Below are positions 1-53,200 of a DNA stretch of 64,000 nt, piece after piece. Both the position numbers and the translations under genes were made by a program. This DNA is from Laetmonice hystrix (lineage: Eukaryota): positions 4,466,001-4,530,000 of the forward strand of contig OZ249436.1 of NCBI GenBank assembly GCA_965235115.1, written 5' to 3'. The stretch's first letter is position 1, and every line of letters starts with the position of its first letter. Under the pieces are notes generated by a model. That model had not been told where the DNA came from. It saw only the letters and a program-made list of their open reading frames with translations, and did not search any database.

Positions 1-2982
1 TCACAGCATTTTCCACCCAACCGTTCACGAACGGCCTTGAACAGCGCCTTCTCAACCTTGGTCCGTTCTCGGATGTACTCGCGGGTTGAGAAAATTATTG
101 CTGTGTTCTGAAATGAAGATATGATCTGTAGATCCTCTGTCTGTAGAACGAGAATTATCCTCTTAAAAAGACAATTAATAAGAATAAACCTGTTGGCGCA
201 TATTTAACTAAAGGGAACTTGCATATACACTATAAACCTCCCTATGCTATTCGCAAACTCAGACTCCCGGGGGATAGTTTAACCCGATGCAACATTGCTG
301 ATAGTCCACCTTCATAGCATCCAGCGCGCTCGCGTAGAGGATATTCCTGTAGGCCAGGTCAAAGTTGTTGTGCAGTTCACGGAGTTGATGGGGACGCAGA
401 AAGTACCGAACGTAAACGGTTATTCCAATCTGACCAATGAATAGAAAATAACACTGATACAACTTCAAGACTGCAAAAAAAAATCACGACAATGCCTAAT
501 ACCAGAGATATACTTAGAGATGAAGGACTTGCAGTATTTGGAACATAATTTTGACGTAGGCCAGCTATAATCTTGATCATTATTATAGTAGATTTATGTC
601 TGTCACCTATTGCATAAGGATACCGCGTCCGCTATTTCTTACATGAAATGATAACCGTCTACACCACAAAGAGCTTGCCAGTATTGCTAATGCATGGTGT
701 GCCGTTCTTTTATAAATAAGCTTGTCACACTTGTGGCTTGCCATTCGTAGAGCGTCAAACTTGTGGCTTGCCACTCGCAGAGCGTCAAACTTGTGGCTTG
801 CCACTCGCAGAGTGTCAAGCTTGTGGCATGCCGCTCGTAGAGCGTCAAACTTGTGGCTTGCCACTCGTAGTGTCAAACATGTGGCTTGCCACTCGTAGAG
901 CGTCAAACTTGTGGTTTGCCACGCGTAGAGTGTCAAACTTGTGGTTTGCCACGCGTAGAGTGTCAAACTTGTGGCTTGCCATTCGCAGAGTGTCAAACTT
1001 GTGGCTTGCCACTCGTTGAGCGCAAACTTGTGGCTTGCCACTCGTTGAGCGTCAAACTTGTGGCTTGCCACTCGTAGTGCCAAACTTGTGGTTTGCCACG
1101 CGTAGAGTGTCAAACTTGTGGCTTGCCACTCGCAGAGTGTCAAACTTGTGGCTTGCCACTCGTGGAGTGTCAAAAACTTGTGGCTTGCCACTCGCGGAGT
1201 GTCAAACTTGTGGCTTGCCACTCGCAGAGTGTCAAACTTGTGGCTTGCCACTCGTGGAGTGTCAAACTTGTGGCTTGCCACTCGTGGAATGTCAAACTTG
1301 TGGCTTGCCACTCGTAGAGTGTCAAACTTGTGGCTTGCCACTCGTGGAGTCTTACCTGGAGTCGGTCTTTCGTAGCAATCTTAATTCCCCGGAACTGCTC
1401 ATTGTGCGAGTAGGCCCGGAACAATTTGAATTCCTTGTCAGGACCAATCAGATACCTCCCTGTAAAGTAAACCTTACTCGTGTCCACGGCCCCAGTCGTC
1501 CGGCTACGTATGAAACCCATCTACACAGAATCACATTTAGTCACATTAGTCATTTCTGGCAACTTTCGCCTTCCCTCCAGATGCCGGGAATTATTTTTCC
1601 CCTTCAAAATTCAAAAACTTTATGCGGGAGGCCACTGCATGTTCGCATCGCGCCTTTGGTGCCCGAGTGTATGGAATTCCGGCGACGACATGCGGGATGC
1701 GAGATGCGAGAAGCCAGATGGGACCAGCGAGATGCAACAAGCGACATGCTACCAGCGAGATGCTACCAGCGAGTTGCGAGAAGCGATTTCATTCTTCTAT
1801 CGCAGCGCATGCAAGCTACAGGAGAATGAAATCGCTTCTCACAACTCGCTGAATCTCGCTGGTAGCATGTCGCTTGTTGCATCTCGCTGGTCCCATCTCG
1901 CTTCTCGCTTCTCGCATGTCGTCGCCGGTATATTTTCACGACGGATTGTCCGAAAAAACCCTGAGCCCCCCCCCCTGCCTCTTAAAGCTATGGATATGGA
2001 ATAAAAGTAATAATGTGGTTTTTGTCCTATCATGACCACAATTTTTAGTTTGGGACTGGCTATTGACACTAACACGGAAACGGCCGACCTAAATTAGTTT
2101 GACTAATTCCGACACGAAACTGGGTGTTTGGGTTAGGGTAAAGGTTAGACCTAGGGTTAGTGTTAGTTTAGTCCCAAAATTGTTGTTAAACAGGCGCTAA
2201 TTTGATGTCGGTGTTTATAAGAAACATTCTATTTGCTATTGACACTGCTCGGTCCATGTCGCTTCGCATCTCGCATCTCGCTGGTCCCATGTCGCTTGTT
2301 GCATGTCGCTTCTCGCATCTCGCTGGCCCCATGTCGCTTTTTGTATCTCGCATCCCGCATGTCGTCGCCGGTATTCCATACGAGTGTATGGAATACCGGC
2401 GACGACATGCGAGAAGCGACATGGGACCGAATAGTGTCAATTTAGCACATAGAATGTTTCTTATTGACACCGATATCACGATCCACGTGCCTATTTAACA
2501 ATAGCATAATTTGGGGGCTAAACTTTTCCTAAAGTGAAAACTAACACTAACCCTAGGCATAACCTTTACCCTAACCCAAACACACTGTCTCGCATCTCGC
2601 ATGTCGTCGCCGGTATTCCATACGAGTGCGCCCCCCTTCGCACCCGTATCCGTCCCTGTTTTGCAGGCTATGTACAAACAAATACGTCAGTAGGTGCCCT
2701 TTGAGAAGACCCTGAACCCCACCCTTCAAGAAACCCAGGATCCGCGCCGGTTATCTAACAAATGTAGCCTGTTTTATGAAACATATGGTTAGGACATTCA
2801 GAACCTTAAGGGCGACCCTGTATAGTATATTTAGTAGGCCTACTGCATGGAGGCAAACATTAACGTTATCTTACCTCATGGTATTCCACGCCAGAAAAGC
2901 TGACTCCTAATAGTACACAGCCCACCAGGACCAGAGCACAGCACACCAAAACGATAAATCCCTTGAGACATCCTCGCTTCAT
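1..2982 (-). CDS. SPFH/Band-7 domain membrane protein, paralog A (3' part runs off the window start)
   Basis: Exons read by hand with GT-AG ends: 2982-2875 (MKRGCLKGFIVLVCCALVLVGCVLLGVSFSGVEYHE, N-terminal TM), 1520-1356 (MGFIRSRTTGAVDTSKVYFTGRYLIGPDKEFKLF...ATKDRLQ), 429-310 (IGITVYVRYFLRPHQL...ALDAMK), 107-<1 (NTAIIFSTREYIRERTKVEKALFKAVRERLGGKCC). Exon 2 and 3 sizes (165, 120) and phases match paralogs B-D. Confidence 0.85.
730..1351. repeat. 30-bp minisatellite (~21 copies) abutting the exon 2 donor of gene A
   Basis: Unit gtcaaacttgtggcttgccactcgtagagt; ends at the GTAAG donor (1355-1351). Confidence 0.95.
1660..2625. mobile_element. Nested palindromic/MITE-like repeats
   Basis: ccggcgacgacatgcg...cgcatgtcgtcgccgg inverted pairs (about 1679-1928, 2357-2411, again at 2598-2613), plus a longer imperfect inverted repeat about 2122-2270 vs 2410-2585. 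Confidence 0.6.
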
Positions 2983-4130
2983 CCTCTGAAAGATCAATAG
3001 AAGCCCACTCAAATCAAACAGGATTTTCACAAAAAAATAACCCCTTTCTTAAAGTTACCCTATCATCAATTAAAAGAAATATGGTGCATATTCCAGCACT
3101 GGGCGGCGAGACCCAACAGCGGAAGTGACGTATCTCGACCCTGTGAGCAACACCACAGATTACCATACACAATCTGTGGTAACACCAACACGTTGTCTTC
3201 ATACGGGACATTTAGCAGCAAAATATGTTCATCGAAAAACTTAAACGGATTAGTTTCTGTGATGTCATGAAGTGGATGGTAATAATGTTTATGGTATTTC
3301 TATCAATTTGATGACCAATGAAGAAAACAGAATATCTAGTCGATTGTTTCTGGTTGGATAATATTCTAGAAATCATTGACATCTAGGCCCCTATCTTTGA
3401 CCGGTCATGTCCGGCAAAGAGCATGATGTCGGCAGTAGGGCCTAGGCCTACATGTCGGCAGTAGGCCATGTCACTCGCGACTCCTCTACGCGGAGCTTAA
3501 AACTGCACAAGAAATTCCTCAAAAAGTTATCTTTTACGACATGTCAGCAACACCATTTTAAATTTTCAGGGTTGAATGGTCACAAAAATTGAGTTACAAT
3601 AATTATTGGCCGTCTCATTAATACTGTTCGGCCCGAACGCTATTTACGAGGTGAGGCTCGTAGAGATTGCCCTAAATACGACCATACCGGAAGTACTGCT
3701 TGCATAAGCCTGATGTCATAGCATAGGCACGTAGTGTATACCGGTAGAACCTGAATGCCGTGTATGGCGCGATATCGCTGTCATAAAAATCCCCACACGG
3801 CGATGGCTTCGCCTTAGCGCCAGGGCCCTCGCCGTGTGGCGACGGCCGTCGCCAATCTTGTGCAATGACTCCATTTAGTCTGTTCACGCGATGCCTCGCC
3901 ATAGCGCAAGGGCTGTCGCGGGATGGCGACGTCGATCGCGGAGGGCGACGAGGATCGCCAAAAAACGCGAGAGAACAGAAGAGATAACATCGCGGCAGGA
4001 CAAGATAAAAGGGCAGTTTAAAAACACCAAAGCCAAGGAAGCGAAGGACAAGGCATGGGGACTGATAGTCAGGACGTTTTTGCACTTTTTGCCTTTTTTA
4101 TTTCTTCAGCCTGCCATCACTTGGATAGCA

Positions 4131-9148: not shown

Positions 9149-9278
9149 GGAAGGAAAGGAAAGGAAAGGAAAGGAAAGGAAAGGAAAGGAAAGAAAAGGA
9201 AAGGAAAGGAAAGGAAAGGAAAGGAAAGGAAAGGGAAGGGAAGGGAAGGGAAGGGAAGGGAAGGGGAAAGGGAAGGGA
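9149..9278. repeat. (GGAAA)n/(GGGAA)n microsatellite
   Basis: Pure purine pentamer run. Confidence 0.95.
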
Positions 9279-12024: not shown

Positions 12025-13303
12025 TAGTGAGTGGCCCCTGCCCCTCAGTGGTGGTCGTATCTGTGTTTGTATAAGTATAGGCCCAGTGGGTGGTCCCTGT
12101 CCCTCGGTGGTGGTCGTATCTGTGTTTGTATAAGTATTGTATAAGTATTGGCCCAGTGAGTGGTCCCTGTCCCTCAGTGGTGGTCGTATCTGTGTTGTAT
12201 AAGTATTGGCCCAGTGAGTAGTCTCTGTCCCTCGGTGGTGGTCGTATCTGTGTTTGTATAAGTATTGGCCCAGTGAGTGGTCCCTGCCCCTCAGTGGTGG
12301 TCGTATCTGTGTTTGTATAAGTATTGGCCCAGTGAGTGGTCCCTGTCCCTCAGTGGTGGTCGTATCTGTGTTTGTATAAGTATTGGCCCAGTGAGTGGTC
12401 TCTGTCCCTCAGTGGTGGTCGTATCTGTGTTTGTATAAGTATTGGCCCAGTGGGTGGTCCCTGCCCCTCAGTGGTGGTCGTATCTGTGTTTGTATAAGTA
12501 TTGGCCCAGTGAGTGGTCCCTGCCCCTCAGTGGTGGTCGTATCTGTGTTTGTATAAGTATTGGCCCAGTGAGTGGTCCCTGTCCCTCAGTGGTGGTCGTA
12601 TCTGTGTTTGTATAAGTATTGGCCCAGTGAGTGGTCCCTGTCCCTCAGTGGTGGTCCTATCTGTGTTTGTATAAGTATTGGCCCAGTGAGTGGTCTCTGT
12701 CCCTCAGTGGTGGTCGTATCTGTGTTTGTATAAGTATTGGCCCAGTGGGTGGTCCCTGCCCCTCAGTGGTGGTCGTATCTGTGTTTGTATAAGTATTGGC
12801 CCAGTGAGTGGTCCCTGCCCCTCAGTGGTGGTCGTATCTGTGTTTGTATAAGTATTGGCCCAGTGAGTGGTCCCTGTCCCTCAGTGGTGGTCGTATCTGT
12901 GTTTGTATAAGTATTGGCCCAGTGAGTGGTCCCTGCCCCTCAGTGGTGGTCGTATCTGTGTTTGTATAAGTATTGGCCCAGTGAGTGGTCCCTGTCCCTC
13001 AGTGGTGGTCGTATCTGTGTTTGTATAAGTATTGGCCCAGTGAGTGGTCCCTGCCCCTCAGTGGTGGTCGTATCTGTGTTTGTATAAGTATTGGCCCAGT
13101 GAGTGGTCCCTGTCCCTCAGTGGTGGTCGTATCTGTGTTTGTATAAGTATTGGCCCAGTGAGTGGTCTCTGTCCCTCAGTGGTGGTCGTATCTGTGTTTG
13201 TATAAGTATTGGCCCAGTGAGTGGTCCCTGTCCCTCAGTGGTGGTCGTATCTGTGTTTGTATAACGCCCAGTGAGTGGTCTCTGTCCCTCAGTGGTGGTC
13301 GTA
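12025..13303. repeat. 59-bp minisatellite (~21 copies)
   Basis: Unit cagtgagtggtccctgtccctcagtggtggtcgtatctgtgtttgtataagtattggcc. Confidence 0.95.
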
Positions 13304-13959: not shown

Positions 13960-14934
13960 ACACTTAGTTCAGTGGACTAGATATTGTTGACACTTAGTTC
14001 AGTGGACCAGATATTGACACTTAGTTCAGTGGACCAGATATTTATTGTTGACACTTAGTTCAGTGGACCAGATATATATTGTTGACACTTAGTTCAGTGG
14101 ACCAGATATTTATTGTTGACACTTAGTTCAGTGGACCAGATATTTATTGTTGACACTTAGTTCAGTGGACCAGATATTTATTGTTGACACTTAGTTCAGT
14201 GGACCAGATATTTATTGTTGACACTTAGTTCAGTGGACCAGATATTTATTGTTGACACTTAGTTCAGTGGACCAGATATATATTGTTGACACTTAGTTCA
14301 GTGGACCAGATATTTATTGTTGACACTTAGTTCAGTGGACCAGATATATATTGTTGACACTTAGTTCAGTGGACCAGACATTTATTGTTGACACTTAGTT
14401 CAGTGGACCAGACATTTATTGTTGACACTTAGTTCAGTGGACCAGATATATATTGTTGACACTTAGTTCAGTGGACCAGATATTTATTGTTGACACTTAG
14501 TTCAGTGGACCAGATATTTATTGTTGACACTTAGTTCAGTGGACCAGATATTTATTGTTGACACTTAGTTCAGTGGACCAGATATTTATTGTTGACACTT
14601 AGTTCAGTGGACCAGATATTTATTGTTGACACTTAGTTCAGTGGACCAGATATTTATTGTTGACACTTAGTTCAGTGGACCAGATATTTATTGTTGACAC
14701 TTAGTTCAGTGGACCAGATATTTATTGTTGACACTTAGTTCAGTGGACCAGATATTTATTGTTGACACTTAGTTCAGTGGACCAGATATTTATTGTTGAC
14801 ACTTAGTTCAGTGGACCAGATATTTATTGTTGACACTTAGTTCAGTGGACCAGACATTTATTGTTGACACTTAGTTCAGTGGACGACCAAATATATATTG
14901 ACACTTAGTTCAGTGGACCAGATATATATTGTTG
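13960..14934. repeat. 34-bp minisatellite (~28 copies) derived from the last codons and stop of gene B
   Basis: Unit acacttagttcagtggaccagatatttattgttg; the terminal copy is the coding QQYISGPLN*. Confidence 0.95.
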
Positions 14935-17900
14935 AAAGTCGATAGCCAACTTCACTTGGTTTTGTTTTCTCAATGTCCTCAGATAATCAAAAGTCGCCTG
15001 CTGTGAATCCATAGTGATGTTGAGCTCATTGTAGAGATACTTGAGACCGTCACTGCGAGCTTTCTCCACGATTGCCTTGGCTGTGGCTGTGGCTTTCGCT
15101 TGAAGTAGATTAGACTGGGCTGCGGCGTTCTGACTGATCTCTAAGGCAGCATTCTCTGCTTGCTTGACCTGAAGGCAGAGTAACATTTAGTATTCAGACA
15201 ATGTGCCGCCTCCGGGGGGATGTCAACTATTATGCACGATAGACTTAAGGACAAGTGCTAGTGTGAGGCCAAAAAAAATTTTTAGACAGATTTTTTTTTT
15301 TAAATTTTGCAGATAAATTTCTATTTGTCATAACGGTCTTCAAGTTATAGAAGTGGTTAAAAAAAAGTTTGATTTTGAACATTTTCACTTTTGCTCATTT
15401 CCACCAGTGAAAATGTTCAAAGTCAAAATTTTTTTCCCTTTTTTTACCACTTCTATTTGTCATAACACCGTTCTGACAAAAAAAAGTGGTTAAAAAAAGA
15501 GAAAAATTGTCTTCATTAACATGAAGAAAATACCAACTTCAAACGCTCTTAAAAAAACTAAGCCGGCGAGGTATCATTTTTTTGCTGAATTTTGAAAGAG
15601 GACAACATACTCTGTTTATCTGCAAAATTTAAAAAAAATCAAAATATTTTGGCCTCACACTAGCACTTGTCCTTAACCTGATCCACTACCGCGATTTCCC
15701 TTGCGACGGCCATGCGATTTTTGATTTTATGGTGGAATTTCACTCTGTAATTTTTCCTGGCTGGTCTTCCCTGTTTCTGGAAATGGGTTCCATCTTTTTA
15801 TCACAGTGAAATAAAAGGGTGATGTTAAATGTCGCAAAAGCAATCACCTTAATGGAAACAGCCCTTAAATCAAACTTCCAAATTTTATATTTCCCCGTGA
15901 CACGTGTACCATCAGATTTATCCTAATGAGGTTATCAGGAGAAACATGGCCGCAGACCGCAGCGACCTCTCTGGGCCATATCTTTGCCTTTACATAATAA
16001 TTCTGATCTACTAGATTTTTATTTAGGAAATCAACCCTGATAATAAAATATTAATTCCTTCCCATAAATCGGGCCTTTCTCGCTAGTTGATGGTATTTCG
16101 TCCCCTGTCGAGACGATATATATTGTTACATAATTAGCCCTACCAGCTGGTCCGACTCCTTTCTGACGATAATCGCAGTCTGGTAAAGTTTCTCCCTCTG
16201 GTTCTGCTCCTGTAAGACGAGCGCCTGGAGGTAGCGTTCGTTCAGTTCTGGAGGAATGCCGAGCTCGTGAAGTTGGAAATACCTGACCTCAGCAAACAGT
16301 GCCCAGTCTGACTCCGTGCACGAGTCGTATTGCTTACACCCCGGCGTGCACGGACCTGCAGCATAGATAGATAGGTCTACCACTGAAAAACACGAGTTAA
16401 CCGGTACGTCTACTCAAGTCAGGAACCTGTATAAGAAAAGAGACCCAGACCCTCCCCCCGCCCCCGGCCCCGATCATGTCTCTTGCCAACTTTTGATACA
16501 CACTTTTGTGGTGGGTCCAGGATTTCAGGGGGGCACCTTTTGGTGGATCATCAATGGCCCATTTTCGGGGGGCGTGGGGGTCCTCCACCAGAATTTTTTC
16601 AGAAACGTCGGGGACAAGTTTTCTGAAAGTTTTCATGGAAGTAACATTATGTTTTGACGGATACCGACGTGTTGCCTCATAGTTCAATCACCAACCGCTC
16701 GGAGCGCTACGATCGCAATGTTTCTGCAAACTAATTCGTTCGGAGCGCTGATCCCAACAAAACTGTTCCGGTGTCCCATATAGAAAGTACCCCATATAAT
16801 TTGTACTCTCCAGTACAAATTATATTATATAAAATGTACTCCCGGGAGTAGATTCTATATAGATAATAAGTACCCCCTTCATATAATTTGGACTCCCCTT
16901 CATATGGCAGAAGTATGGGGTGAGTTATATATGGGTGTATTATATATGGGGTTAGGGTTGGGTTAGGGTTAGGGTCAGTATTATCTAGATAATAGTTACT
17001 GGGGAGTACGTTTTATATGGGGAGTATATATTAGATGTCACACCGGCAGTGGCTTCATGTCAACAAAAGGTGGCTTCATGTCAACAATAGGTGGCTTCAT
17101 GTCAACAATAGGTGGCGGGGGGGGGGGGGTTCAGCCTATGACAGTTTATGAGAGAAAAACATAGAGTTTCCAGGAGTAGGAGAGGGGTAGAAATATCATG
17201 TCTAATTGAAAATGTTGTTTCAAATGTACCCCCCCAAAAAAACTCCCTTCCCCCAAAATTTTAATTGGCCTATAAAAAAGTAAAAGTAGTATGGAACTGT
17301 GGGCCCCCATCGTTCTTAGGGAGCCCCCCCCCCCCCCCCCGTCGTTAGTTCAAATTTCTTTTTTTTTCTTAAATACTCCTGGTCACCAGGGAGCTTATAA
17401 TAGGGGGCAAAATCAACGATTACCTTGGCCAACCTTCCCACAGTTCAGTTCGCAGCAACTCCCACCAAGCCTTTCCCGAAGAGCCTGAAACAGCGCGTCC
17501 TCGATCTTTTGTCGTTCTAAGAAATACTCTCGGTTGGTGAATAATGTAGCTTTGCTCTAAGCGAATAAAAACAGGATTATAATTATTTATGATGTTGAAC
17601 AATTATACGAGCATATTTAGTATTTTTGTTTTATATCATTTTGTTCTAGATATTTTATTTTTGTGTAGAAAACAATAGATCTCTACTGATAATATGAGTA
17701 GATTCTAACCTTGATGGCGTCACGGGCGTTCTTGCGCAGCACGGGGGCGTAGTGAAGGTCAAAGTTAGCGTGCAGGTATCGCAGCTGGTGAGGTCGGAGA
17801 AAATAGATCATGGTGGCTGAGATGGTCACCTGTGGAGGGGAGACAGTGATCACAATGAACCCATGTAGGTACGTCAGCTGGTGAGGTCGGTAAAAATAGA

Positions 17901-19113: not shown

Positions 19114-19479
19114 GATACGTATCCTTCCGGTCTGTCCAAGATATCAATCGTCATAGATCAGTGAACTGACTATAACTGACTACTCAACCCTACGTAGACC
19201 CCGTCAGGCCTCAACCGTTTCTACAACAGTCACGGTTGTCATTGGGTGTTTACAGTGCATGCCAAGGTCAGGTAATCCCCAATATACCACTCTTGTCCCA
19301 TACAGAGACTTCCATACCATAAGGCGATTTGTGGTAGAGCTAAGTTAGGATATTGGTCATTATATGGAGGCCGAATTAGTGGTTATTATGACTCCTATAG
19401 CATTCTTTGGGGCCGATTCTGCCATCCTCATACTATAATCAGGAAGAGCTATAAACAATTCTGTCTCTACACTAAATAT

Positions 19480-21946: not shown

Positions 21947-22343
21947 CTGGGCATCCCTCTGGATTCACGCCTTTTTGTGGCAGGCGAGGGTTGGGCAAAA
22001 GAAACGCGTGAGTGCAATATGTTGTCCTTGTGCGATAGGGGAAGGAAGAGGGGGGGGGGCATGATAAATAATTCAGGAGGTTCTATGGGGGAACAGAAAA
22101 AATTGTTGGGGGAGGGGGTTGCGCCCCGATCCACCTATGGACACTTATACCATAACAGGCACTATATTTCTGATATCTGAGAATTTTAACTCCTCGGTTT
22201 TTTCTTCATTCAACACGCAGCTCCTAGAACCCGTCTGGATCTGACGTCCCACCCGTGTCAGTAGGTCCATGAGGTGGTGTATGAGGTCATTGCTGCGGTA
22301 TACCGTTTGTCCTGAATCTCAGTAAACCATCTCTGTCACCATC

Positions 22344-34800: not shown

Positions 34801-34877
34801 GAGAGTTTCCGAGGTCATCAGTTTGACCAGGGAAATATAGAAAATATTTCCCAACTTTGACCACAATATATTGGAAT

Positions 34878-35109
34878 GGTCAGGACTCACTTCATTAGTC
34901 AGGACTCACTTCATTGGCCAGGACTCACTTCTTTGGTCAGGACTCACTTCATTAGTCAGGACTCATTTCATTGGTCAGGACTGACTTCATTGGTCAGGAC
35001 TGACTTCATTGGTCAGGACTCACTTCATTGGTCAGGACTCACTTCATTAGTCAGGACTCACTTCATTGGTCAGAACTCACTTCATTGGTCAGAACTCACT
35101 TCATTGGTC
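34878..35109. repeat. 19-bp minisatellite (~12 copies) derived from the stop region of gene D
   Basis: Unit ggtcaggactcacttcatt; the reverse strand repeats CCA ATG AAG TGA (PMK*). Confidence 0.93.
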
Positions 35110-38100: not shown

Positions 38101-39484
38101 ACGAGATAAACATTCGTGTTATAATATCTGTGACACAATGTATAAATTACGAGATAAACATTCGTGTTATAATATCTGTGACACAATGTATAAATTATTG
38201 GATAAACATTGGTGTTATAATATCTGTGACACAATGTATAAATTACTAGATAAGCATTCGTGTTATAATATCTGTGACACAATGTATAAATTACTAGATA
38301 AACATTCGTGTTATAATATCTGTGACACAATGTATAAATTACGAGATAAACATTCGTGTTATAATATCTGTGACACAATGTATAAATTACTAGATAAACA
38401 TTGGTGTTATAATATCTGTGACACAATGTATAAATTACGAGATAAACATTGGTGTTATAATATCTGTGACACAATGTATAAATTACGAGATAAACATTGG
38501 TGTTATAATATCTGTGACACAATGTATAAATTACTGGATAAACATTCGTGTTATAATATCTGTGACACAATGTATAAATTACTAGATAAACATTTGTGTT
38601 ATAATATCTGTGACACAATGTATAAATTATTGGATAAACATTGGTGTTATAATATCTGTGACACAATGTATAAATTACTAGATAAACATTCGTGTTATAA
38701 TATCTGTGACACAATGTATAAATTACTGGATAAACATTGGTGTTATAATATCTGTGACACAATGTATAAATTACTAGATAAACATTCGTGTTATAATATC
38801 TGTGACACAATGTATAAATTACTGGATAAACATTGGTGTTATAATATCTGTGACACAATGTATAAATTACTAGATAAACATTCGTGTTATAATATCTATA
38901 TCAATGAAAGTGACGAATTGGTAAGAAACTGATCAGTAACCGACCTGTAACCTGTCAGCCGCGAACACCTGTATTTTATTGAAGGACTCGAAGTGAGCAT
39001 CGGCTGGGAAGACTTTGAACTCGTAGTCGGGTCCGATGAGGTGGAGGCCCCCGCTGTAGACGTGTTTGATGTCCACCTCGCCAGTCGTCTTACGGCGACG
39101 GAACCCGTACTAAACATGAGGCCAAAACAAAGACTTCATCTCTTATTTGTAATATAATTGTTATTACAAAGCGTAAGCACAGTCGTAAGGTCATAAAGCG
39201 ACAAGAGATGATTAAAATTACAAAGAATTAATTTGCCTTAGCAATCTGAGAGTACAATGGCAGTAGGAATACAACCATTGATATTAAGAAATAAATCATT
39301 TGTCTTTTTACAATTGATAAATCGCCTGTGTATGGGAGTTTGAGTCACTTACCTGGTAGTATTCGAGCCTGCCAAAACTGAGGGGTACGAGGATGAGAGT
39401 GAGAACGAGGCCGACACCGAGGACAATCAGCACGATACAGAGTACGACCTTTGAGGGTGATCTCGAGATCTCTGACTCCGCCAT
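35096..39484 (-). CDS. SPFH/Band-7 domain membrane protein, paralog D (338 aa, 6 coding exons)
   Basis: Exons 39484-39353, 39109-38945, 36772-36653, 36133-36010, 35788-35577, 35359-35096 (132+165+120+124+212+264 nt), GT-AG, open to TGA. Clear homology to B and C in every exon (YGFRRRKTTGEVD...GPDYEFKVFP; AEVRYFQLHEL; AFDYLRTL). Confidence 0.88.
36089..36436 (-). repeat. 69-bp tandem duplication of the acceptor plus 5' part of exon 4, gene D
   Basis: Acceptor AGs at 36134, 36203, 36272, 36341, 36410; in-frame 23-aa unit YNNITCTQGAATLFTTREYIRKR. Confidence 0.95.
36793..38897. repeat. 48-bp minisatellite (~44 copies) filling intron 2 of gene D
   Basis: Unit tgtgacacaatgtataaattactagataaacattggtgttataatatc; occupies ~2.1 kb of a 2.17-kb intron. 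Confidence 0.96.
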
Positions 39485-39750
39485 TCTATACAACAGACAA
39501 CACCGGCTTGGAGTCAGAGATCGGAGACATACATGTATCCATGGATACACGCCTATAATAATGGCGCCATTCTATATACACAACAGACAACACCGGCTTG
39601 GAGTCAGAGGTCGGAGACATACATGTATCCATGGAAACACGACTCTGTACTGTAATAATGGCGCCATTCTATATACACAACAGACAACACCGGCTTGGAG
39701 TCAGAGGTCGGAGACATACATGTATCCATGGAAACACGACTCTGTATTAT
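39480..39750 (-). repeat. Three ~90-bp copies of the acceptor plus ATG of the gene D first coding exon
   Basis: gccattctata...caacagacaacaccggcttggagtcaga at 39480, 39566, 39663; the reverse strand reads tatag|A ATG GCG in each. Confidence 0.9.
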
Positions 39751-39964
39751 AATAAAGCCGATCGTATGTGTAAATGAACAACCATGGTGCTATATAGGAG
39801 TCAAGTTGGAGTGGCATGTGCTGCTTTGAGAAAGATATGGTTAGCATAATACCACCGATCTATCTTTCCACTTGTAGCATGAGTTTATGTCGTGTAGCAT
39901 TAAGATCGGTGATCGAGTTGTAATGCAACAAGTTCTACTGCTTTATTGTCGAGGGTGGAACCAG

Positions 39965-40393
39965 TCATGTTCCCACCCATGTTTCCACCCATGTTTCCAC
40001 CCATATTTCCACCCATGTTCCCACCCATGTCCCCACCCATGTTCCCACCCATGTTCCCACCCATGTTCCTATCCGTGACAAAATTAATTGGTACTCGACA
40101 CTCACCTTAATTTGTAATGTCGTGTGTTTTGGAAGTGGCGCTTGTAGCATGAACCTGAGATCGTCCCAATGTTACAAGCGTCGGTTTGTGATTATAGCCT
40201 GAACCTGAGATCGTCCCAATGTTACAAGCGTCGGTTTGTGATTGTAGCCTGAACCTGAGATCGTCCTGGTATCAATGTTACAAGCGTCGGTTTGTGATTG
40301 TAGCCTGAACCTGAGATCGTCCCAATGTTACAAGCGTCGGTTTGTGATTATAGCCTGAACCTGAGATCGTCCCAATGTTACAAGCGTCGGTTT
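39965..40393. repeat. 12-bp (catgttcccacc) and 50-bp tandem repeats flanking a candidate minus-strand donor at 40105
   Basis: 12-mer at 39965-40068; 50-mer gaacctgagatcgtcccaatgttacaagcgtcggtttgtgattatagcct x5 at 40151-40393; AG|GTGAGT between them. Confidence 0.85.
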
Positions 40394-41566: not shown

Positions 41567-42335
41567 ACCCTCACTGTAGCATCAGGAGGGCGTGCCAGGA
41601 CAAGGTAAAGTACCATTACCCTCACTCTAACATCAGGAGGGCGTGCCAGACCGAGGTAAAGTACCACTACCCTCACTGTAACATCAGGAGGGCGTGCCAG
41701 GCCGAGGTAAAGTACCACTACCCTCACTGTAACATCAGGAGGGCGTGCCAGGCCGAGGTAAAGTACCACTACCCTCACTGTAGCATCAGGAGGGCGTGCC
41801 AGACCGAGGTAAAGTACCACTACCCTCACTGTAGCATAAGGAGGGCGTGCCAGGCCGAGGTAAAGTACCACTACCCTCACTGTAGCATCAGGAGGGCGTG
41901 CCAGGCCGAGGTAAAGTACCACTACCCTCACTGTAACATCAGGAGGGCGTGCCAGGACGAGGTAAAGTACCACTACCCTCACTGTAGCATAAGGAGGGCG
42001 TGCCAGGCCGAGGTAATTTAAAGTACCACTACCCTCACTGTAGCATAAGGAGGGCGTGCCAGACCGAGGTAAAGTACCACTACCCTCACTGTAGCATCAG
42101 GAGGGCGTGCCAGGCCGAGGTAAAGTACCACTACCCTCACTGTAGCATCAGGAGGGCGTGCCAGACCGAGGTAAAGTACCACTACCCTCACTGTAGCATA
42201 AGGAGGGCGTGCCAGACCGAGGTAAAGTACCACTACCCTCACTGTAACTACAGGAGGGCGTGCCAGGCCGAGGTAAAGTACCACTACCCTCACTGTAACA
42301 TCAGGAGGGCGTGCCAGGCCGAGTTAAAGTACCAT
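41567..42335 (+). repeat. 51-bp minisatellite (~15 copies), nearly every unit containing AG|GTAAAG
   Basis: Unit cctcactgtagcatcaggagggcgtgccaggccgaggtaaagtaccactac. Confidence 0.93.
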
Positions 42336-43079: not shown

Positions 43080-43168
43080 CTAATTACATCATATCATGCA
43101 AGCTATATTTCCTCTAGGTTTAATGTTTTAATGAGTGACATGCAGGTAAAAGCAGTTACTTTGAACTC

Positions 43169-44233
43169 CTGTATACACACCTGTTAATCGATACTTCTGT
43201 AACCTTTTAGGAGACGTGAAGATGGCGGAGAATGTGGCAAAGATTGCTGTGTTAGCAGCGGTAGTCGCTGTGGCCCTGTATACACACCTGTTAATTGATA
43301 CCTCTGTAACCTTTTAGGAGACGTGAGGATGGCGGAGAATGTGGCAAAGATTGCTGTGTTAGCAGCGGTAGTCGCTGTGGCCCTGTATACACACCTGTTA
43401 ATTGATACCTCTGTAACCTTTTAGGAGACGTGAGGATGGCGGAGAATGTGGCAAAGATTGCTGTGTTAGCAGCGGTAGTCGTTGTGGCCCTGTATACACA
43501 CCTGTTAATCGATACCTCTGTAACCTTTCAGGACGTGAAGATGACGGAGAATGTGGCAAAGATTGCTGTGTTAGCAGCGGTGGTCGTTGTGGCCCTGTAT
43601 ACACACCTGTTAATCGATACCTCTGTAACCTTTCAGGACGTGAAGATGACGGAGAATGTGGCAAAGATTGCTGTGTTAGCAGCGGTGGTCGCTGTGGCCC
43701 TGTATACACACCTGTTAATTGATACCTCTGTAACCTTTTAGGAGACGTGAGGATGGCGGAGAATGTGGCAAAGATTGCTGTGTTAGCAGCGGTGGTCGCT
43801 GTGGCCCTGTATACACACCTGTTAATTGATACCTCTGTAACCTTTCAGGAGACGTGAAGATGGCGGAGAATGTGGCAAAGATTGCTGTGTTAGCAGCGGT
43901 GGTCGCTGTGGCCCTGTATACACACCTGTTAATCGATACCTCTGTAACCTTTCAGGACGTGAAGATGACGGAGAATGTGGCAAAGATTGCTGTGTTAGCA
44001 GCGGTAGTCGTTGTGGCCCTGTATACACACCTGTTAATCGATACCTCTGTAACCTTTCAGGACGTGAAGATGACGGAGAATGTGGCAAAGATTGCTGTGT
44101 TAGCAGCGGTGGTCGCTGTGGCCCTGTATACACACCTGTTAATCGATACTTCTGTAACCTTTCAGGAGACGGGAAGATGACGGAGCATGTGGCAAAGATT
44201 GCTGTGTTAGCAGCGGTAGTCGCTGTGGCCCTG
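43169..44233 (+). repeat. Ten 105/107-bp copies of the acceptor, ATG and first ~19 codons of gene E
   Basis: ATGs at 43222, 43329, 43436, 43541, 43646, 43753, 43860, 43965, 44070, 44177. Confidence 0.95.
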
Positions 44234-47200
44234 CTAACCATCAGCTTGCTCGCTGTGTCTTTAGAAAAACTAAATTCCGATGAAGGTTTGTTACTGAATT
44301 ATTTAATTGCCATAACGACTTTGATATCTTTGTTATCCACAACTGGATGTCAGAGAAACCATATACTATATACTCTGCACTAGGGGATTCAGAGGGGGGG
44401 GGGGCAGGGGACCCGGTCCCCCTTATATTTTCCTTCTTTTTATGAAGATGTTATGACTATATTTGAATAATATATAGTATATGAATAATTAAAAACAATT
44501 AAAAGTGTGTTAATAGCAATTATTTTGTGTGTGTAATACAGGCACAATCAAATCATGCCAAGCATAGCGAGGCTAACATTTTTTGGCTGTGTGTGCCCCT
44601 TCCCCCTTATCAAAATCCTGGACCCCCCCCCCCCCCCCCACACTGCTCTGTTATCTTTCCGCACGGGCAATGATAGATGAACTATTTGTTTGATTTTCAG
44701 TTGCGTTAATGTATGACACAGTCAGTAAAAGTCTGGACGAGAAGCCGCGGTACGAAGGTCTGCACAATGGACCACCCGGCTTCGAGTTCATCGTCTTCCC
44801 GTCAGTCTTCAGGACGTACGAGTTCTCAGCCCTCACGGTAGGCGGCGCTACAATCATCTTATTCACCCTGGCCCAAAAGTCGTATATGAAAGAACTATAG
44901 AAAGATGGCAATTGGTCTAAATATCTCTGTTTATATGTATATGTTTTCTATAGTATAGCACTTTGTTTACTCAAGGTAACGTTGGCACGTACAATTTCTT
45001 GAAGGACAGTGTTCTTCTTGAAAGACAGTCCATAAAGTAGAACACCATTGTATATAATATTGAAAAGGGAAATGATAAATGGAAAAGTAACAGTTTCCCA
45101 TTAATAATCGTGCAGTAATTCTCGAATAAAATCCATGAGTTCAGCCAAGGTGGGTTGGTGCAACTAAATACTGGCGATGGGTCATACCGGAGACAGTCGA
45201 GCTGAGCGTCCGTATCTAGCTCAGGCGGACTTGAATCCAGGTGGAAATTTATGCCAGGAGGGATATAGACGCCCACGTGGTCCTTGTTATAAACTAAGCC
45301 TAACATATAATACACCTAACCACTGGGATTGACATGACCCGTGACGTCAAGCGACAGAGATCGGGGTTATTTGTAAGTCGAGTATTGGGGTGCGTTTAAT
45401 CTACAGTCCACAAACTACATTGTATTTCGTACCATAGGTCGGTATGCTTACAGGTCTGACATAATAAAAACCCGCTCGATGGAAAATTCCCATCGATGAC
45501 TAAAATAGGGACTATAAAGGCGTTGAAAGCGGACTCATTTTAAGGCACTCCCGTTTCTCCTCCCGCTTCGCTGCCCATAGTAATTCATCATTCAGTCGGT
45601 CCAAATATGTAGGCCTGTTGTAGATGCCAACTTGAATTATGTTATTTTTGGCGTAGAAAACGTTTGAAAACCTGGCATCCTTATAGATACCTCAATAAGT
45701 TGTCGTAATGAAGAACGTAGACCGATTCATTATATAAGTGGCCACTCCCGATAACTCACATCGTGGTTTTACGATGGGTTGACTCATCAATGTCAACTAT
45801 TGCCACCAGATGGCAGCACACTTCTGCAGTGCCCGCCGTATCATGGTGTTGTCATGTCGATGTTTGTTCCCGCAGTGTTTGCCCTATCTTGGTGTTGTCA
45901 TGTCGGTGTTTGTGTCCGCAGTGTTTGCCCTATCATGGTGTTGTCATATCGATGTTTGTGTCCGCAGTGTTTGCCCTATCATGGTGGTCTCATATATCGA
46001 TGTTTGTGTCCGCAGTGTTTGCCCTATCATGGTGTTCTCATATATCGATGTTTGTGTCCGCAGTGTTTGCCCTATCATGGTGTTGTCATGTCGATGTTTG
46101 TGTCCGCAGTGTTTGCCCTATCATGGTATTGTCATATATCGATGTTTGTGTCCGCAGTGTTTGCCCTATCATGGTGTTGTCATGTCGATGTTTGTGTCCG
46201 CAGTGTTTGCCCTATCATGGTGTTGTCATGTCGATGTTTGTGTCCGCAGTGTTTGCCCTATCATGGTATTGTCATATATCGATGTTTGTGTCCGCAGTGT
46301 TTGCCCTATCATGGTGGTCTCATATATCGATGTTTGTGTCCGCAGTGTTTGCCCTATCATGGTGTTGTCATATCGATGTTTGTGTCCGCAGTGTTTGCCC
46401 TATCATGGTGTTGTCATATCGATGTTTGTGACCGCAGTGTTTGCCGTATCATGGTGTTGTCATATCAATGTTTGTGTCCGCAGTGTTTGCCCTATCATGG
46501 TGTTGTCATGTCGATGTTTGTGTCCCCAGTGTTTGCCCTATCATGGTGTTGTCATGTCGATGTTTGTGTCCGCAGTGTTTGCTCTATCATGGTGTTGTCA
46601 TGTCGATGTTTGTGTCCGCAGTGTTTGCTCTATCATGGTGTTGTCATATCGATGTTTGTGTCCGCAGTGTTTGCCCTATCATGGTGTTGTCATGTCGATG
46701 TTTGTGTCCGCAGTGTTTGCCCTATCATGGTGTTGTCATATCGATGTTTGTGTCCGCAGTGTTTGCCCTATCATGGTGTTGTCATATCGATGTTTGTGTC
46801 CGCAGTGTTTGCCCTATCATGGTGGTCTCATATATCGATGTTTGTGTCCGCAGTGTTTGCCCTATCATGGTGGTCTCATATATCGATGTTTGTGTCCGCA
46901 GTGTTTGCCCTATCATGGTATTGTCATGTCGATGTTTGTGTCCGCAGTGTTTGCCCTATCATGGTGTTGTCATGTCGATGTTTGTGTCCGCAGTGTTTTC
47001 CCTATCATATGATGTTGTCATATCGATGTTTGTGTCCGCAGTGTTTGCCCTATCATGGTATTGTCATGTCGATGTTTGTGTCCGCAGTGTTTGCCCTATC
47101 ATGGTGTTGTCATATCGATGTTTGTGTCCGCAGTGTTTGCCCTATCATGGTGTTGTCATATCGATGTTTGTGTCCGCAGTGTTTGCCCTATCATGGTGTT

Positions 47201-50200
47201 GTCATGTCTATGTTTGTGTCCGCAGTGTTTGCCCTATCATGGTGTTGTCATATCGATGTTTGTGTCCGCAGTGTTTGCCCTATCATGGTGTTCTCATATA
47301 TCGATGTTTGTGTCCGCAGTGTTTGCCCTATCATGGTGTTGTCATATATCGATGTTTGTGTCCGCAGTGTTTGCCCTATCATGGTGTTGTCATATTGATG
47401 TTTGTGTCCGCAGTGTTTGCCCTATCATGGTGTTGGCATATCGATGTTTGTGTCCGCAGTGTTTGCCCTATCATGGGTTGTCATATCGATGTTTGTGTCC
47501 GCAGTGTTTGCCCTATCATGGTGTTGTCATGTCTATGTTTGTGTCCGCAGTGTTTGCCCTATCATGGTGTTGTCATATCGATGTTTGTGTCCGCAGTGTT
47601 TGCCCTATCATGGTGTTGTCATGTCGATGTTTGTGTCCGCAGTGTTTGCCCTATCATGGTGTTGTCATGTCGATGTTTGTGTCCGCAGTGTTTGCCCTAT
47701 CATGGTGTTGTCATGTCGATGTTTGTGTCCGCAGTGTTTGCCCTATCATGGTGTTGTCATATCGATGTTTGTTTCCTCTATCATGATGTTGTCATGTCGA
47801 TGTTTGTGTCCGCAGTGTTTGCCCTATCATGGTGTTGTCATGTCGATGTTTGTGTCCGCAGTGTTTGCCCTATCATGGTGGTCTCATATATCGATGTTTG
47901 TGTCCGCAGTGTTTGCCCTGTCATGGTGTTGTCATATCGATGTTTGTGTCCGCAGTGTTTGCCCTATCATGGTGTTGTCATATCGATGTTTGTGTCCGCA
48001 GTGTTTGCCCTATCATGGTGTTGTCATATCGATGTTTGTGTCCGCAGTGTTTGCCCTATCATGGTGGTCTCATATATCGATGTTTGTGTCCGCAGTGTTT
48101 GCCCTGTCATGGTGTTGTCATATCGATGTTTGTGTCCGCAGTGTTTGCCCTATCATGGTGTTGTCATATCGATGTTTGTGTCTGCAGTGTTTGCCCTATC
48201 ATGGTGTTGTCATGTCGATGTTTGTGTCCGCAGTGTTTTCCCTATCATGGTGTTGTCATGTCGATGTTTGTGTCCGCAGTGTTTGCCCTATCATGGTGTT
48301 GTCATGTCGATGTTTGTGTCCGCAGTGTTTGCCCTATCATGGTGTTGTCATGTCGATGTTTGTGTCCGCAGTGTTTTCCCTATCATGGTGTTGTCATGTC
48401 GATGTTTGTGTCCGCAGTGTTTGCCCTATCATGGTGTTGTCATGTCGATGTTTGTGTCCGCAGTGTTTGCTCTATCATGGTTTTGTCATGTCGATGTTTG
48501 TGTCTGCAGTGCCCGCCGTATCATGGTGTTGTCACATCGATGTTTGTTTCCTCTATCATGGTGTTGTCATGTCGATGTTTGTTTCTGCAGTGTTTATCCA
48601 ATCATGGTGTTGTCATGTCGATGTTTGTTTCTGCAGTGTTTATCCAATCATGGTGTTGTCATGTCGATGTTTGTGTCCGCAGTGTTTGCCCTATCATGGT
48701 GTTGTCATGTCGATGTTTGTGTCCGCAGTGTTTGCCCTATCATGGTGTTGTCATGTCGATGTTTGTGTCCGCAGTGTTTGCCCTATCATGGTGTTGTCAT
48801 ATCGATGTTTGTGTCCGCAGTGTTTGCCCTATCATGGTGTTCTCATATCGATGTTTGTGTCCGCAGTGTTTGCCCTATCATGGTGTTCTCATATATCGAT
48901 GTTTGTGTCCGCAGTGTTTGCCCTATCATGGTGTTGTCATATATCGATGTTTGTGTCCGCAGTGTTTGCCCTATCATGGTGTTGTCATATTGATGTTTGT
49001 GTCCGCAGTGTTTGCCCTATCATGGTGTTGGCATATCGATGTTTGTGTCCGCAGTGTTTGCCCTATCATGGGTTGTCATATCGATGTTTGTGTCCGCAGT
49101 GTTTGCCCTATCATGGTGTTGTCATGTCTATGTTTGTGTCCGCAGTGTTTGCCCTATCATGGTGTTGTCATATCGATGTTTGTGTCCGCAGTGTTTGCCC
49201 TATCATGGTGTTGTCATGTCGATGTTTGTGTCCGCAGTGTTTGCCCTATCATGGTGTTGTCATGTCGATGTTTGTGTCCGCAGTGTTTGCCCTATCATGG
49301 TGTTGTCATGTCGATGTTTGTGTCCGCAGTGTTTGCCCTATCATGGTGTTGTCATATCGATGTTTGTTTCCTCTATCATGATGTTGTCATGTCGATGTTT
49401 GTGTCCGCAGTGTTTGCCCTATCATGGTGTTGTCATGTCGATGTTTGTGTCCGCAGTGTTTGCCCTATCATGGTGGTCTCATATATCGATGTTTGTGTCC
49501 GCAGTGTTTGCCCTGTCATGGTGTTGTCATATCGATGTTTGTGTCCGCAGTGTTTGCCCTATCATGGTGTTGTCATATCGATGTTTGTGTCCGCAGTGTT
49601 TGCCCTATCATGGTGTTGTCATATCGATGTTTGTGTCCGCAGTGTTTGCCCTATCATGGTGGTCTCATATATCGATGTTTGTGTCCGCAGTGTTTGCCCT
49701 GTCATGGTGTTGTCATATCGATGTTTGTGTCCGCAGTGTTTGCCCTATCATGGTGTTGTCATATCGATGTTTGTGTCTGCAGTGTTTGCCCTATCATGGT
49801 GTTGTCATGTCGATGTTTGTGTCCGCAGTGTTTTCCCTATCATGGTGTTGTCATGTCGATGTTTGTGTCCGCAGTGTTTGCCCTATCATGGTGTTGTCAT
49901 GTCGATGTTTGTGTCCGCAGTGTTTGCCCTATCATGGTGTTGTCATGTCGATGTTTGTGTCCGCAGTGTTTTCCCTATCATGGTGTTGTCATGTCGATGT
50001 TTGTGTCCGCAGTGTTTGCCCTATCATGGTGTTGTCATGTCGATGTTTGTGTCCGCAGTGTTTGCTCTATCATGGTTTTGTCATGTCGATGTTTGTGTCT
50101 GCAGTGCCCGCCGTATCATGGTGTTGTCACATCGATGTTTGTTTCCTCTATCATGGTGTTGTCATGTCGATGTTTGTTTCTGCAGTGTTTATCCAATCAT

Positions 50201-53200
50201 GGTGTTGTCATGTCGATGTTTGTTTCTGCAGTGTTTATCCAATCATGGTGTTGTCATGTCGATGTTTGTGTCCGCAGTGTTTGCCCTATCATGGTGTTGT
50301 CATGTCGATGTTTGTGTCCGCAGTGTTTGCCCTATCATGGTGTTGTCATGTCGATGTTTGTGTCCGCAGTGTTTGCCCTATCATGGTGTTGTCATATCGA
50401 TGTTTGTGTCCGCAGTGTTTGCCCTATCATGGTGTTCTCATATCGATGTTTGTTTCTGCAGTGTTTATCCAATCATGATGTTGTCATGATGTTTGTTTCC
50501 GCAGTGTCTGAACAAGGACGGGGTGAGGATCGTACTCTCCATCAGTTATCAGTACAGAGTGCGGCCGAGGGAGCTGCACAGACTAGTCATGCAGTTCAAG
50601 GACCACGAGGGATTCAAACAGATACTCGGATCTATTGGTAGGGAAATTCTTGCTGATACATATGTTTCAAGATTATATCGGGTGGATAAAAAAAAACGCC
50701 CCGAACTTTAAACTTCAATATTTCAAAAAGTAATGATTGTAATTCAATGAAATTTTTCTTAATATCACTTCATGATGTTGTCTCTTAGTTGTCAATGTTA
50801 CAACTCAATAGCTTGGATAATATTTCCGTAGCACTAAAAACAAAAATCATTGTACAAAAGCGCAATGCCGGGCTAAAGTGAGTTGTAGTCGCTCCTAGAG
50901 TCCCTGGCCTCACACTAGAGTAGGAGGTCAATCGGTCCCCCGTTTTCACTCCATACTGCTCTCAGTCTCTTTTTCCATGAGCCGATGCACTTCCTGATCT
51001 CTGATAGGAAAATATCTTCCCAACACTGGGAAATACGCAACGTTCTGAATGTGTTGCTAAACGTGATAATGATACGATTGCCCTTGAACTTCTCGTTACA
51101 GTCATATCGTCCTAATGTTGCAGTTTCTCTGTAGGGTTTGGCACATTAAACATCTGTTTTTCTCTAAAAGTGCTAGGAATAGCACATATTTTATTATATC
51201 TAGTGGTCCACAACATTATACATATTGTGAAACATGCAAAAACTAAATATTGATTTTTTTTACCCAAGGTACAATGCGGTGCATCAAACAGGTGTTAAAT
51301 TGGACACCTGGCAGCTGCATGATATTTGACCTAATTCCGGCATTGCGTTTTTAGACACTGATTTTGGTTTTTAGTGCCACGGGATTCATATCAATGCCAT
51401 TGAGCTGAAACTTGAACATACCAGAGATAATATCATGAAGTGATATTAGGAGAAATTTTATTGAATTAGAAAGCATAGTTTTTGAAATATTAAAGTTTAA
51501 AGTTCGGGGCGTTTTTTTTTATCCACCCGATATATGTGCAGTGGTGAATATTATATGGCAAGTGATCCTTAAAACTCGGGAGGCCCCCTATATTTCTTCT
51601 TTTCTTCATCTGCCTTCTTCCTCTTCTTCTTCCTCTTCCTCCTCTTCCTCCTCCTCCTCCTTCTCCCCTCCGCTTTCTTTTTCTTCCTAATTGAGGTGAA
51701 CACCAATGTGCGGAGAAAGTCATTTGACGGTCACACGTGTTGTTACTTGTGAACACCAATGTGTGGATAATGTCAGTTGACGGTCACACGTGTTGTTACT
51801 TGTGAACACCAATGTGTGGATACAGTCAGTTGACGGTCACACGTGTTGTTACTTGTGAACACCAATGTGTGGATAATGTCAGTTGACGGTCACACGTGTT
51901 GTTACTTGTGAACACCAATGTGTGGAGACAGTCAGTTGACGGTCACACGTGTTGTTACTTGCGAACACCAATGTGTGGAGGAAGTCAGTTGACGGTCACA
52001 CGTGTTGTTACTTGTGAACACCAATGTGTGGAGACAGTCAGTTGACGGTCACACGTGTTGTTACTTGTGAACACCAATGTGTGGATACAGTCAGTTGACG
52101 GTCACACGTGTTGTTACTTGTGAACACCAATGTGTGGAGACAGTCAGTTGACGGTCACACGTGTTGTTACTTGTGAACACCAATGTGTGGAGACAGTCAG
52201 TTGACGGTCACACGTGTTGTTACTTGTGAACACCAATGTGTGGAGACAGTCAGTTGACGGTCACACGTGTTGTTACTTGTGAACACCAATGTGTGGAGAC
52301 AGTCAGTTGACGGTCACACGTGTTGTTACTTGTGAACACCAATGTGTGGAGACAGTCAGTTGACGGTCACACGTGTTGTTACTTGTGAACACCAATGTGT
52401 GGATAATGTCAGTTGACGGTCACACGTGTTGTTACTTGTGAACACCAATGTGTGGAGACAGTCAGTTGACGGTCACACGTGTTGTTACTTGTGAACACCA
52501 ATGTGTGGAGGAAGTCAGTTGACGGTCACACGTGTTGTTACTTGTGAACACCAATGTGTGGAGACAGTCAGTTGACGGTCACACGTGTTGTTACTTGTGA
52601 ACACCAATGTGTGGAGACAGTCAGTTGACGGTCACACGTGTTGTTACTTGTGAACACCAATGTGTGGAGGAAGTCAGTTGACGGTCACACGTGTTGTTAC
52701 TTGCGAACACCAATGTGTGGAGGAAGTCAGTTGACGGTCACACGTGTTGTTACTTGTGAACACCAATGTGTGGAGACAGTCAGTTGACGGTCACACGTGT
52801 TGTTACTTGTGAACACCAATGTGTGGAGACAGTCAGTTGACGGTCACACGTGTTGTTACTTGTGAACACCAGTGTGTGGAGGAAGTCAGTTGACGGTCAC
52901 ACGTGTTGTTACTTGTGAACACCAGTGTGTGGAGGAAGTCAGTTGACGGTCACACGTGTTGTTACTTCCAGGAGAGTCAGCACTACACGACGCTTGTAGT
53001 CGGTTCAACACGTCGCAGTTCCAGGCGGAGCGGGGAGCATTTCAAGAGGAGGTTCGCGCACGTTTGGTCGAGAAATACGACGACATCGCCACAGATGTTA
53101 CAGATCTACAGGTTAGGACCTGAGACAAACATAGAAAACGGAAATAAAGACAGACATAAAAGGCATCCCTTTGGGGAAAGGAGAATGTAAATGAATGTTT

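Follow-up and report, generated by a model that had tools for sequence, protein, structure and literature searches.

Why should minisatellites with unrelated units gather at the exon boundaries of neighbouring genes? The question is raised by a 64,000-bp stretch of the genome of the polychaete annelid Laetmonice hystrix (the window, hereafter), spanning 4.47-4.53 Mb on the 73.8-Mb contig that is the largest of 35 in a 627-Mb assembly. Mitochondrial sequence agrees with a polychaete host: COX1 matches Phyllodocida entries at 90% identity, its top hits are annelids throughout, and mitochondrial gene order points the same way. Branchiostoma was rejected as host, its best hits reaching just 46-55%. 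The window holds a five-gene cluster of an uncharacterised SPFH/Band-7 family: four minus-strand paralogs, A to D, and one divergent plus-strand gene, E, followed by a galactosyltransferase gene. A preliminary description of this sequence had proposed that arrays arise repeatedly at the splice sites and stop codons of these genes; it missed that the phenomenon is already described, as the 'mirage' minisatellites of amphioxus. We find that the association is real and that it has a direction, with an excess of arrays at splice acceptors and none at donors. The kind of repeat is known, the acceptor polarity is new and reasonably firm, and its cause is unproven.

Arrays in the window were collected with Tandem Repeats Finder (TRF; period of at least 10, score of at least 100, non-redundant), which gave 28 arrays covering 22,596 of the 64,000 bp. 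Each array was reduced to one unit before shuffling (the collapsed-array null) because, as we reason, growth adds units internally and leaves the spacing to the exon as it was at birth. Fourteen of the 28 lie near a coding boundary, meaning here within 60 bp, compared to 4.76 expected, and none of 5000 shuffles reached 14; the other 14 lie farther than 60 bp from an annotated coding boundary, more than the 'handful' first described. Split by site, 10 arrays are at acceptors (2.4 expected), 1 is at a donor (1.9) and 3 span stop codons (0.22). The arrays at exon 3 of B and of C are not independent, because they represent a single array spread by gene conversion; with the C array dropped, 13 of 27 are near a boundary vs 4.6 expected.

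An independent sample was taken from 47 regions (252,291 bp) around hits of myosin-head and kinesin hidden Markov models (HMMs). Its 240 exons comprise 207 seeded by homology and 33 from a separate scan, which ignored candidates wholly within arrays and whose cut-off is cleared by 92% of known exons; exon ends were placed by a splice and codon model, and one exon start was shifted by hand by one repeat unit, the array there spanning the acceptor either way. Sixty-five of 67 arrays were used; the other two, truncated at the edge of a region and away from any site, were set aside. Acceptor-near arrays numbered 22 vs 7.7 expected (0/5000 shuffles), while donor-near arrays numbered 9 vs 7.8; for arrays that span the site, the counts were 11 vs 3.8 at acceptors (5/5000) and 2 vs 3.8 at donors. 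The homology-seeded exons alone gave 21 vs 6.6 near acceptors and 7 vs 6.8 near donors. The 22 acceptor-near arrays are spread over 13 regions and 10 contigs on both strands, and a hand count per region gives 11 leaning towards acceptors, 2 towards donors and 2 ties (sign P about 0.02). Eleven of the 22 cross the acceptor into the exon and were therefore born at it. The window is extreme, with arrays at 10 of 27 acceptors compared to 22 of 240 in the sample. To posit an enrichment at exon edges in general is thus too broad: the excess is found at acceptors, with stops perhaps to be added, and there is none at donors.

The polarity is retained when each array is shuffled only inside its own intron. 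For the 49 sample arrays in complete introns, acceptors have 18 vs 9.3 expected (5/10000) and donors 7 vs 9.2; with the window included (59 arrays), the values are 25 vs 12.6 (0/10000) and 9 vs 12.4. Among arrays near one intron end only, 17 are near the acceptor and 6 near the donor in the sample (sign P 0.035), and 23 and 7 when the window is added (P 0.005). Head-to-tail copying at intron tails is thus 2-3-fold over chance. Acceptor-like motifs lacking an exon were also considered as a cause and rejected: a strong site of this kind adjoins 7 of the 36 far arrays vs 4.6 expected, which is not significant, and several of the seven look like missed exons.

In the following, arrays in the SPFH genes are named by gene and exon, and lie on the strand of their gene. 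In five cases the unit copies the acceptor together with exon bases: B3 (17774..18293; 93 bp x5.6, with 37 intron nt and 56 exon nt), C3 (26323..26722; 93 bp x4.3, the array common to B and C), D4 (36089..36435; 69 bp x5, 24 intron nt and 45 exon nt), E1 (43168..44233; 107 bp x10, 39 intron nt and 68 exon nt including the start codon) and E3 (45835..50507; 46 bp x102, locus-private, 3 exon nt). At D1 (39490..39753; 97 bp x2.8) the acceptor and start codon of the first coding exon are copied as well, by about 7 nt judged by eye, just outside the TRF edge, and beyond the window start a 63-bp array crosses the acceptor of A exon 5. All of these, and 11 acceptor and 2 donor cases at other loci, are mirages in the sense that the unit spans the boundary and copies the signal. 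Other arrays that had been listed with them are not: A2 (723..1350; 30 bp x21) begins 5 nt past the donor, C2 (27198..28630; 39 bp x36) ends 2 nt ahead of its exon and E4 (51696..52967; 53 bp x24) ends 4 nt ahead, so that they abut sites that they do not copy, while D3 (36801..38897; 48 bp x44) and C5 (24147..25181; 44/39 bp x25) end 28 and 51 nt ahead of their acceptors and are merely near. D3 is also uninformative, since it fills a collapsed intron (intron 2) of 123 bp and lies 47 nt from the D2 donor. The stop-codon arrays, discussed below, are not mirages either.

The claim that the terminal copy is the working site is supported at D4, where D exon 3 is spliced to the terminal acceptor in one RNA contig (joint 36652-36133); the contig comes from run X4, which is not listed as RNA and behaved as RNA when aligned. 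Splicing at this one site is thus normal and uses the authentic terminal copy. No RNA joint to any of the D4 decoys was seen, at the one acceptor tested and with contigs that drop rare forms. Each of the three DNA runs, which are listed as one sample, has a contig that stops at 36118, exactly 30 nt inside the D4 array; because a 31-mer graph stops at a real repeat, this break argues that the array is real, and the spliced RNA contig passes 36118 where the DNA contigs stop. DNA contigs break at the arrays, and the sequence of these runs departs from the assembly at many positions. Decoy acceptors often match the working acceptor in score, and the extra splice sites are probably silent and without function. 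The RNA contig joining D exons 3 and 4 continues into intron 4 (35940-36009), as a retained intron or unspliced RNA.

The units are mostly unrelated, as had been stated: an all-against-all BLAST of units returned one short 30-nt hit and the B3/C3 pair only, and genome searches with two units (by a search that skips very common words) matched their own array only in both cases. Two of the 22 acceptor arrays are within 50 bp of a detected dispersed repeat, under a mask that missed one high-copy element. The units are locally derived and non-dispersed, and their lengths show no preference for multiples of three. Terminal units start at 1.7 per kb of opportunity between -50 and -20 relative to the acceptor, at 0.92 between -80 and -50, at 0.21 between -20 and 0, and at 0-0.34 farther away, compared to 0.16-0.68 per kb in the donor mirror. 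Nearly all terminal units cover the branch-point zone, and the scarcity of starts in the last 20 nt would fit selection for a unit that holds the branch point; the branch-point motif profile itself is weak, with a low peak at -25. Eleven of 31 terminal units begin at -42 to -48 regardless of length (P 0.0004 vs a uniform null, post hoc, with array edges uncertain by a few bases). Junction overlap is at most 2 nt in all eight two-copy duplicates checked, and a wider scan for exact two-copy duplicates returned only six, none near a splice site. Duplications of tens of bases with little junction microhomology are also produced by paired nicks through fill-in and end-joining (PMC8355091). The accessible text of that report deals with engineered breaks in mammalian cells and makes no tie to splice sites, and it can serve as a model for the birth step only.

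Based on this, we suggest that mirages form by duplication born more often at intron tails, followed by a splicing filter and by growth through unequal exchange, a reading to which we assign a probability of about 50%. At birth, a local piece of 20-150 bp would be duplicated head-to-tail, several-fold more often over the last 20-80 nt of the intron, where the branch point and pyrimidine tract lie; the enrichment is observed, and we infer from it a higher birth rate, perhaps by fill-in and end-joining where two nicks lie close together in DNA exposed before the exon. Nucleosome depletion and polymerase pausing occur at acceptors, a point on which our literature searches returned nothing. A duplicate would then survive only if its exon-side copy keeps the whole signal, with the extra copies placed in the intron or the 3' untranslated region (UTR). 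Under such a filter the working site would always be terminal and the array would point away from the coding sequence; this geometry is observed, with terminal use seen at the single acceptor tested. Finally, two copies could become 5-100 by unequal exchange and by gene conversion, both acting more strongly near chromosome ends, and these might move an array between paralogs, as is observed for exon 3 of B and C; the link to recombination rate is a correlation. We can only speculate that splicing itself leaves a footprint in germ-line DNA, with U2 binding in the branch-point zone of expressed introns, slowing of the polymerase and paired nicks giving a preferred break ~45 nt before the acceptor; we regard this as doubtful. 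If true, lancelet and annelid mirages would be products of one splicing-coupled mutational process that makes spare acceptors.

Several points weigh against a birth bias at intron tails. Standing arrays cannot separate birth from survival, and the strictest null leaves only about a 2-fold excess, within which acceptor-spanning arrays alone are borderline (8 vs 4.5, 515/10000). Arrays of fewer than four copies, which are nearest to births, have no clear acceptor bias (5 vs 2.7, 345/3000) and are slightly enriched just past donors (5 vs 1.3, 25/3000); likewise, acceptors hold only 2 of 8 two-copy duplicates. Donor-side cases do exist, with two spanning arrays in the sample, A2 in the window and three candidate UTR donors, and the stop arrays point the opposite way and are unexplained by a hot zone at intron tails. 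The sample consists of myosin and kinesin genes picked partly for long spans, and its exon calls come from HMM hits combined with a home-made splice model instead of RNA.

These points leave room for a uniform birth with biased survival, in which arrays holding the branch point or acceptor in their last unit cannot be deleted whole, while donor-copying arrays are purged because downstream donors are used. The acceptor bias is indeed clear (17 vs 5.0) once arrays have at least four copies and weak (5 vs 2.7) among smaller ones, donor-spanning arrays fall slightly below expectation (2 vs 3.8), and the constrained zone is in general longer at acceptors than at donors. Survival would, however, require harmful donor copies and harmless acceptor copies, and in human F7 the donor copies are silent in the accessible account (PMC1557585); downstream donor copies do not compete there, so that selection would not, on this evidence, be expected to remove donor arrays. 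Acceptor-near arrays are moreover neither older nor larger than the others, with a median identity of 93.5 vs 95 (P 0.90) and 6 vs 5 copies (P 0.19). We consider this explanation possible but less likely. It is rather unlikely that arrays instead mark the edges of homology, with recombination between divergent alleles or paralogs starting in conserved exons and slipping where identity ends, stops included. Such slippage accounts for stop arrays with unrelated units in all four minus-strand paralogs, for which it is the best rival, and both the evident conversion between B and C and the many differences between DNA runs and assembly are in its favour; yet it predicts equal donor and acceptor counts, which are not seen, the two-copy junctions lack long microhomology, and only 1 of 20 other gene ends has a stop-spanning duplicate.

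The preliminary description had offered targeting to exon edges and neutral growth stopped at exons as its two causes; some targeting of duplication birth is likely, whereas the latter fits poorly. Growth within originally short introns, or neutral growth and erosion of flanks halted at exons, does hold for some arrays, as the collapsed introns at D3 (123 bp), B3 (143 bp) and C2 (155 bp) are small. But the within-intron null already allows for short introns and still gives the acceptor excess (25 vs 12.6, with donors at 9 vs 12.4); at E3 and E4 the collapsed introns measure about 1.0-1.1 kb, and yet the array is placed right at the intron end; exon sequence cannot be brought into units by erosion; and added units should push flanks apart, not consume them. 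An origin free of any targeting is thus improbable and already largely refuted. It is more improbable still that the arrays are selected for a function, with extra branch points and acceptors strengthening or tuning splicing or providing in-frame alternative exon extensions. Unit length is divisible by three at B3/C3 (93 bp) and at D4 (69 bp), with a reading frame that stays open into the exon, and a C. elegans minisatellite is described as over-represented near alternative exons in the available part of PMC4039745; on the other hand, only 5 of 14 exon-reaching acceptor arrays have a unit divisible by three (hand count, B3/C3 counted once), as by chance, the RNA contig bypasses all D4 decoys, and units are unrelated and differ between paralogs. 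An assembly artefact is hardly credible: the copies are 90-99% identical, an insertion splits the array in A intron 4, and all three DNA runs break 30 nt into D4 as they would at a real repeat, even if the 1,595-bp block repeated at ~99% identity in the E3 array means that the longest arrays may have been given too many copies.

The amphioxus mirages, known from Adh3, troponin C, the globins BflGb6 and BflGb9 and PGBD5, resemble the worm arrays, as far as the accessible text of those papers goes (PMC3087553, PMC3902484), in being locus-private repeats that span boundaries, with units of tens to about 150 bp, copied splice signals, normal splicing and concerted evolution. According to the same text, both boundaries can duplicate in amphioxus and the mechanism is called unclear, whereas the worm has an acceptor excess and none at donors; in many worm arrays, moreover, the copied sequence is intron tail with no exon bases, and in others it includes the stop. 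In human F7, the terminal unit of a 37-bp variable-number tandem repeat in intron 7 spans a splice site and the other copies are silent pseudo-sites (PMC1557585, in the part accessible); this is a single donor-side case, while the common form in the worm is its acceptor-side mirror and occurs in many genes. Variable internal tandem repeats at exon-intron boundaries are also described for human genes in segmental duplications, which form young paralog families (PMC2812944, available sections). Those repeats start within exons and often alter the transcript, compared to no change at the one worm acceptor, and in the worm apparently ordinary myosin and kinesin genes are hit too. A genome-scale test or an acceptor-biased account of mirages was not found in our literature search, whose coverage of subscription papers is incomplete. 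The amphioxus Adh3 mirage is reportedly unstable in somatic tissue. Mirages have so far been anecdotal, their origin being called unclear in the amphioxus globin paper; a genome rich in them, with a measurable bias of acceptors over donors, makes the question testable, so that birth vs survival and the responsible chromatin or splicing feature can now be addressed. The arrays also offer natural experiments on the choice of the final acceptor among many identical ones. They have been proposed as raw material for the gain of introns, and they can mislead gene prediction.

The coding ends of A, B, C and D are each copied by an unrelated array, with units of 57, 34, 68 and 19 bp. The array of A crosses the stop beyond the window start; that of B (14014..14935, minus strand; 34 bp x27) contains the final ~30 coding nt including the stop and a few UTR nt; that of D (34877..35109, minus; 19 bp x12) contains 14 coding and 5 UTR nt. 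In these three the unit ends about 4-8 nt past the stop. The C array (22342..23275, minus) is compound, with 68 bp x4.4 holding the last coding codons, then a related 47 bp x13; its copies have lost the stop itself. Among 20 other gene ends of 550 bp each, from the Ras and P450 families, of which at least three are probably not true stops, we found one 52-bp stop-spanning duplicate and one array 24 nt downstream; this sample is too small to call an excess outside the window. The idea that the stop arrays are donor arrays of an intron in the 3' UTR was not supported, with donor scores of only -3 to 5.2 and no such joint at D, where X4 RNA contigs lie on both sides of the stop array.

B and C are a patchwork of gene conversion (14905-28873), judging from their sequences. 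Exon 3 is identical at 118 of 120 nt and has the common array (5.6 vs 4.3 copies), while exon 2 is identical at 117 of 165; synonymous differences number 2 in 40 codons in exon 3 compared to 20 in 49 in exon 2, and 3 in 48 and 3 in 49 codons in the initial 145 nt of exon 5 and of exon 6, which are nearly identical too. Exons 1, 2 and 4 are 52-77% identical. The three tracts start at or near the acceptor side, which is suggestive only. Across the sample regions, which were not chosen randomly, arrays become sparser away from the chromosome end (rho -0.35, P 0.018), and their density is also lower on longer chromosomes (rho -0.41, P 0.004). Regions less than 3 Mb from a contig end have 0.57 arrays per kb, compared to 0.075 in those beyond 13 Mb. 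Minisatellites cluster near chromosome ends in other animals as well. The block duplicated in the E3 array (47000-50500; 1,595 bp, about 99% identical) is either a recent unequal exchange or an assembly duplication.

All modelled introns of A to E are GT..AG, and the spliced genes give open proteins of 333 (B), 334 (C), 361 (D) and 304 (E) amino acids, with 166 for the part of A inside the window. The coding exons are, for A (1..2985, minus), exons 1-4 at 2985-2875, 1520-1356, 429-310 and 107-<1, with exons 5-6 past the window start; for B (14905..19131, minus), 19131-19003, 18564-18400 (the exon 2 start being set at 18564), 17829-17710, 17556-17424, 16355-16144 and 15168-14905; for C (23240..28873, minus), 28873-28745, 27195-27031, 26381-26262, 25476-25344, 24095-23884 and 23503-23240; for D (35096..39485, minus), 39485-39353, 39109-38945, 36772-36653, 36133-36010, 35857-35577 and 35359-35096; and for E (44166..54057, plus), 44166-44285, 44701-44837, 50505-50637, 52972-53111, 53378-53574 and 53859-54057. 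A-D match homologues over their length at 44-56% identity with 0-4 gap openings, and E at 25-29%. Single E exons score 14-16 bits against the PF01145 cut-off of 23.6 (exons scored singly, not as spliced proteins), while that cut-off is cleared by all seven full-length homologues of D exon 6; these homologues were found by HMMER, a word-index protein search with D exon 6 giving no match. The D exon 5 acceptor was moved to 35857 by an RNA contig; it is an unusual GAG that adds 23 codons (35788-35857) without counterpart in B and C, and an internal acceptor at 35788 looks better. The galactosyltransferase gene (57236-58525, minus; PF01762, E 1e-40) has a single coding exon, with boundaries free of arrays.

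Arrays also accompany candidate donors in 5' UTRs: a locus-private 59-bp x21.6 array (12026..13303, minus) 12 nt past a candidate A donor at 13315 (score 8.3), 12-bp and 50-bp arrays (39966..40393, minus) flanking a candidate D donor at 40106 (score 11.1), and a 51-bp x15 array (41567..42334, plus) with a donor-like motif per unit at a candidate E donor at 41604, whose score of 5.9 falls in the lower quartile. D and E are divergent, with candidate non-coding first exons at 40100-41610, which suggests a shared promoter region; three arrays adjoin those exons.

Large homogeneous arrays without an annotated exon nearby lie at 10609-11169 (43 bp), 60238-61540 (41 bp) and 62403-63600 (63 bp). Four further exon-distant arrays belong to inverted, internally repetitive arms at 1680-2600 and 4160-5150 (14-bp and 11/191-bp periods), which are probably transposon remnants. 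Beyond the window start, the 63-bp array ahead of A exon 5 is interrupted in intron 4; the insertion there measures 1,543 bp and carries a short AAAC repeat at one of its ends. Very high-copy short elements are present at 36447-36586 and 30054-30119, with summed contig depths of thousands to tens of thousands; the former carries inverted ends and is separated from the D4 array by 12 nt. Finally, a 477-bp segment at 31310-31788, part of a repeated element, is missing from the contigs of all three DNA runs, pointing to an insertion polymorphism.

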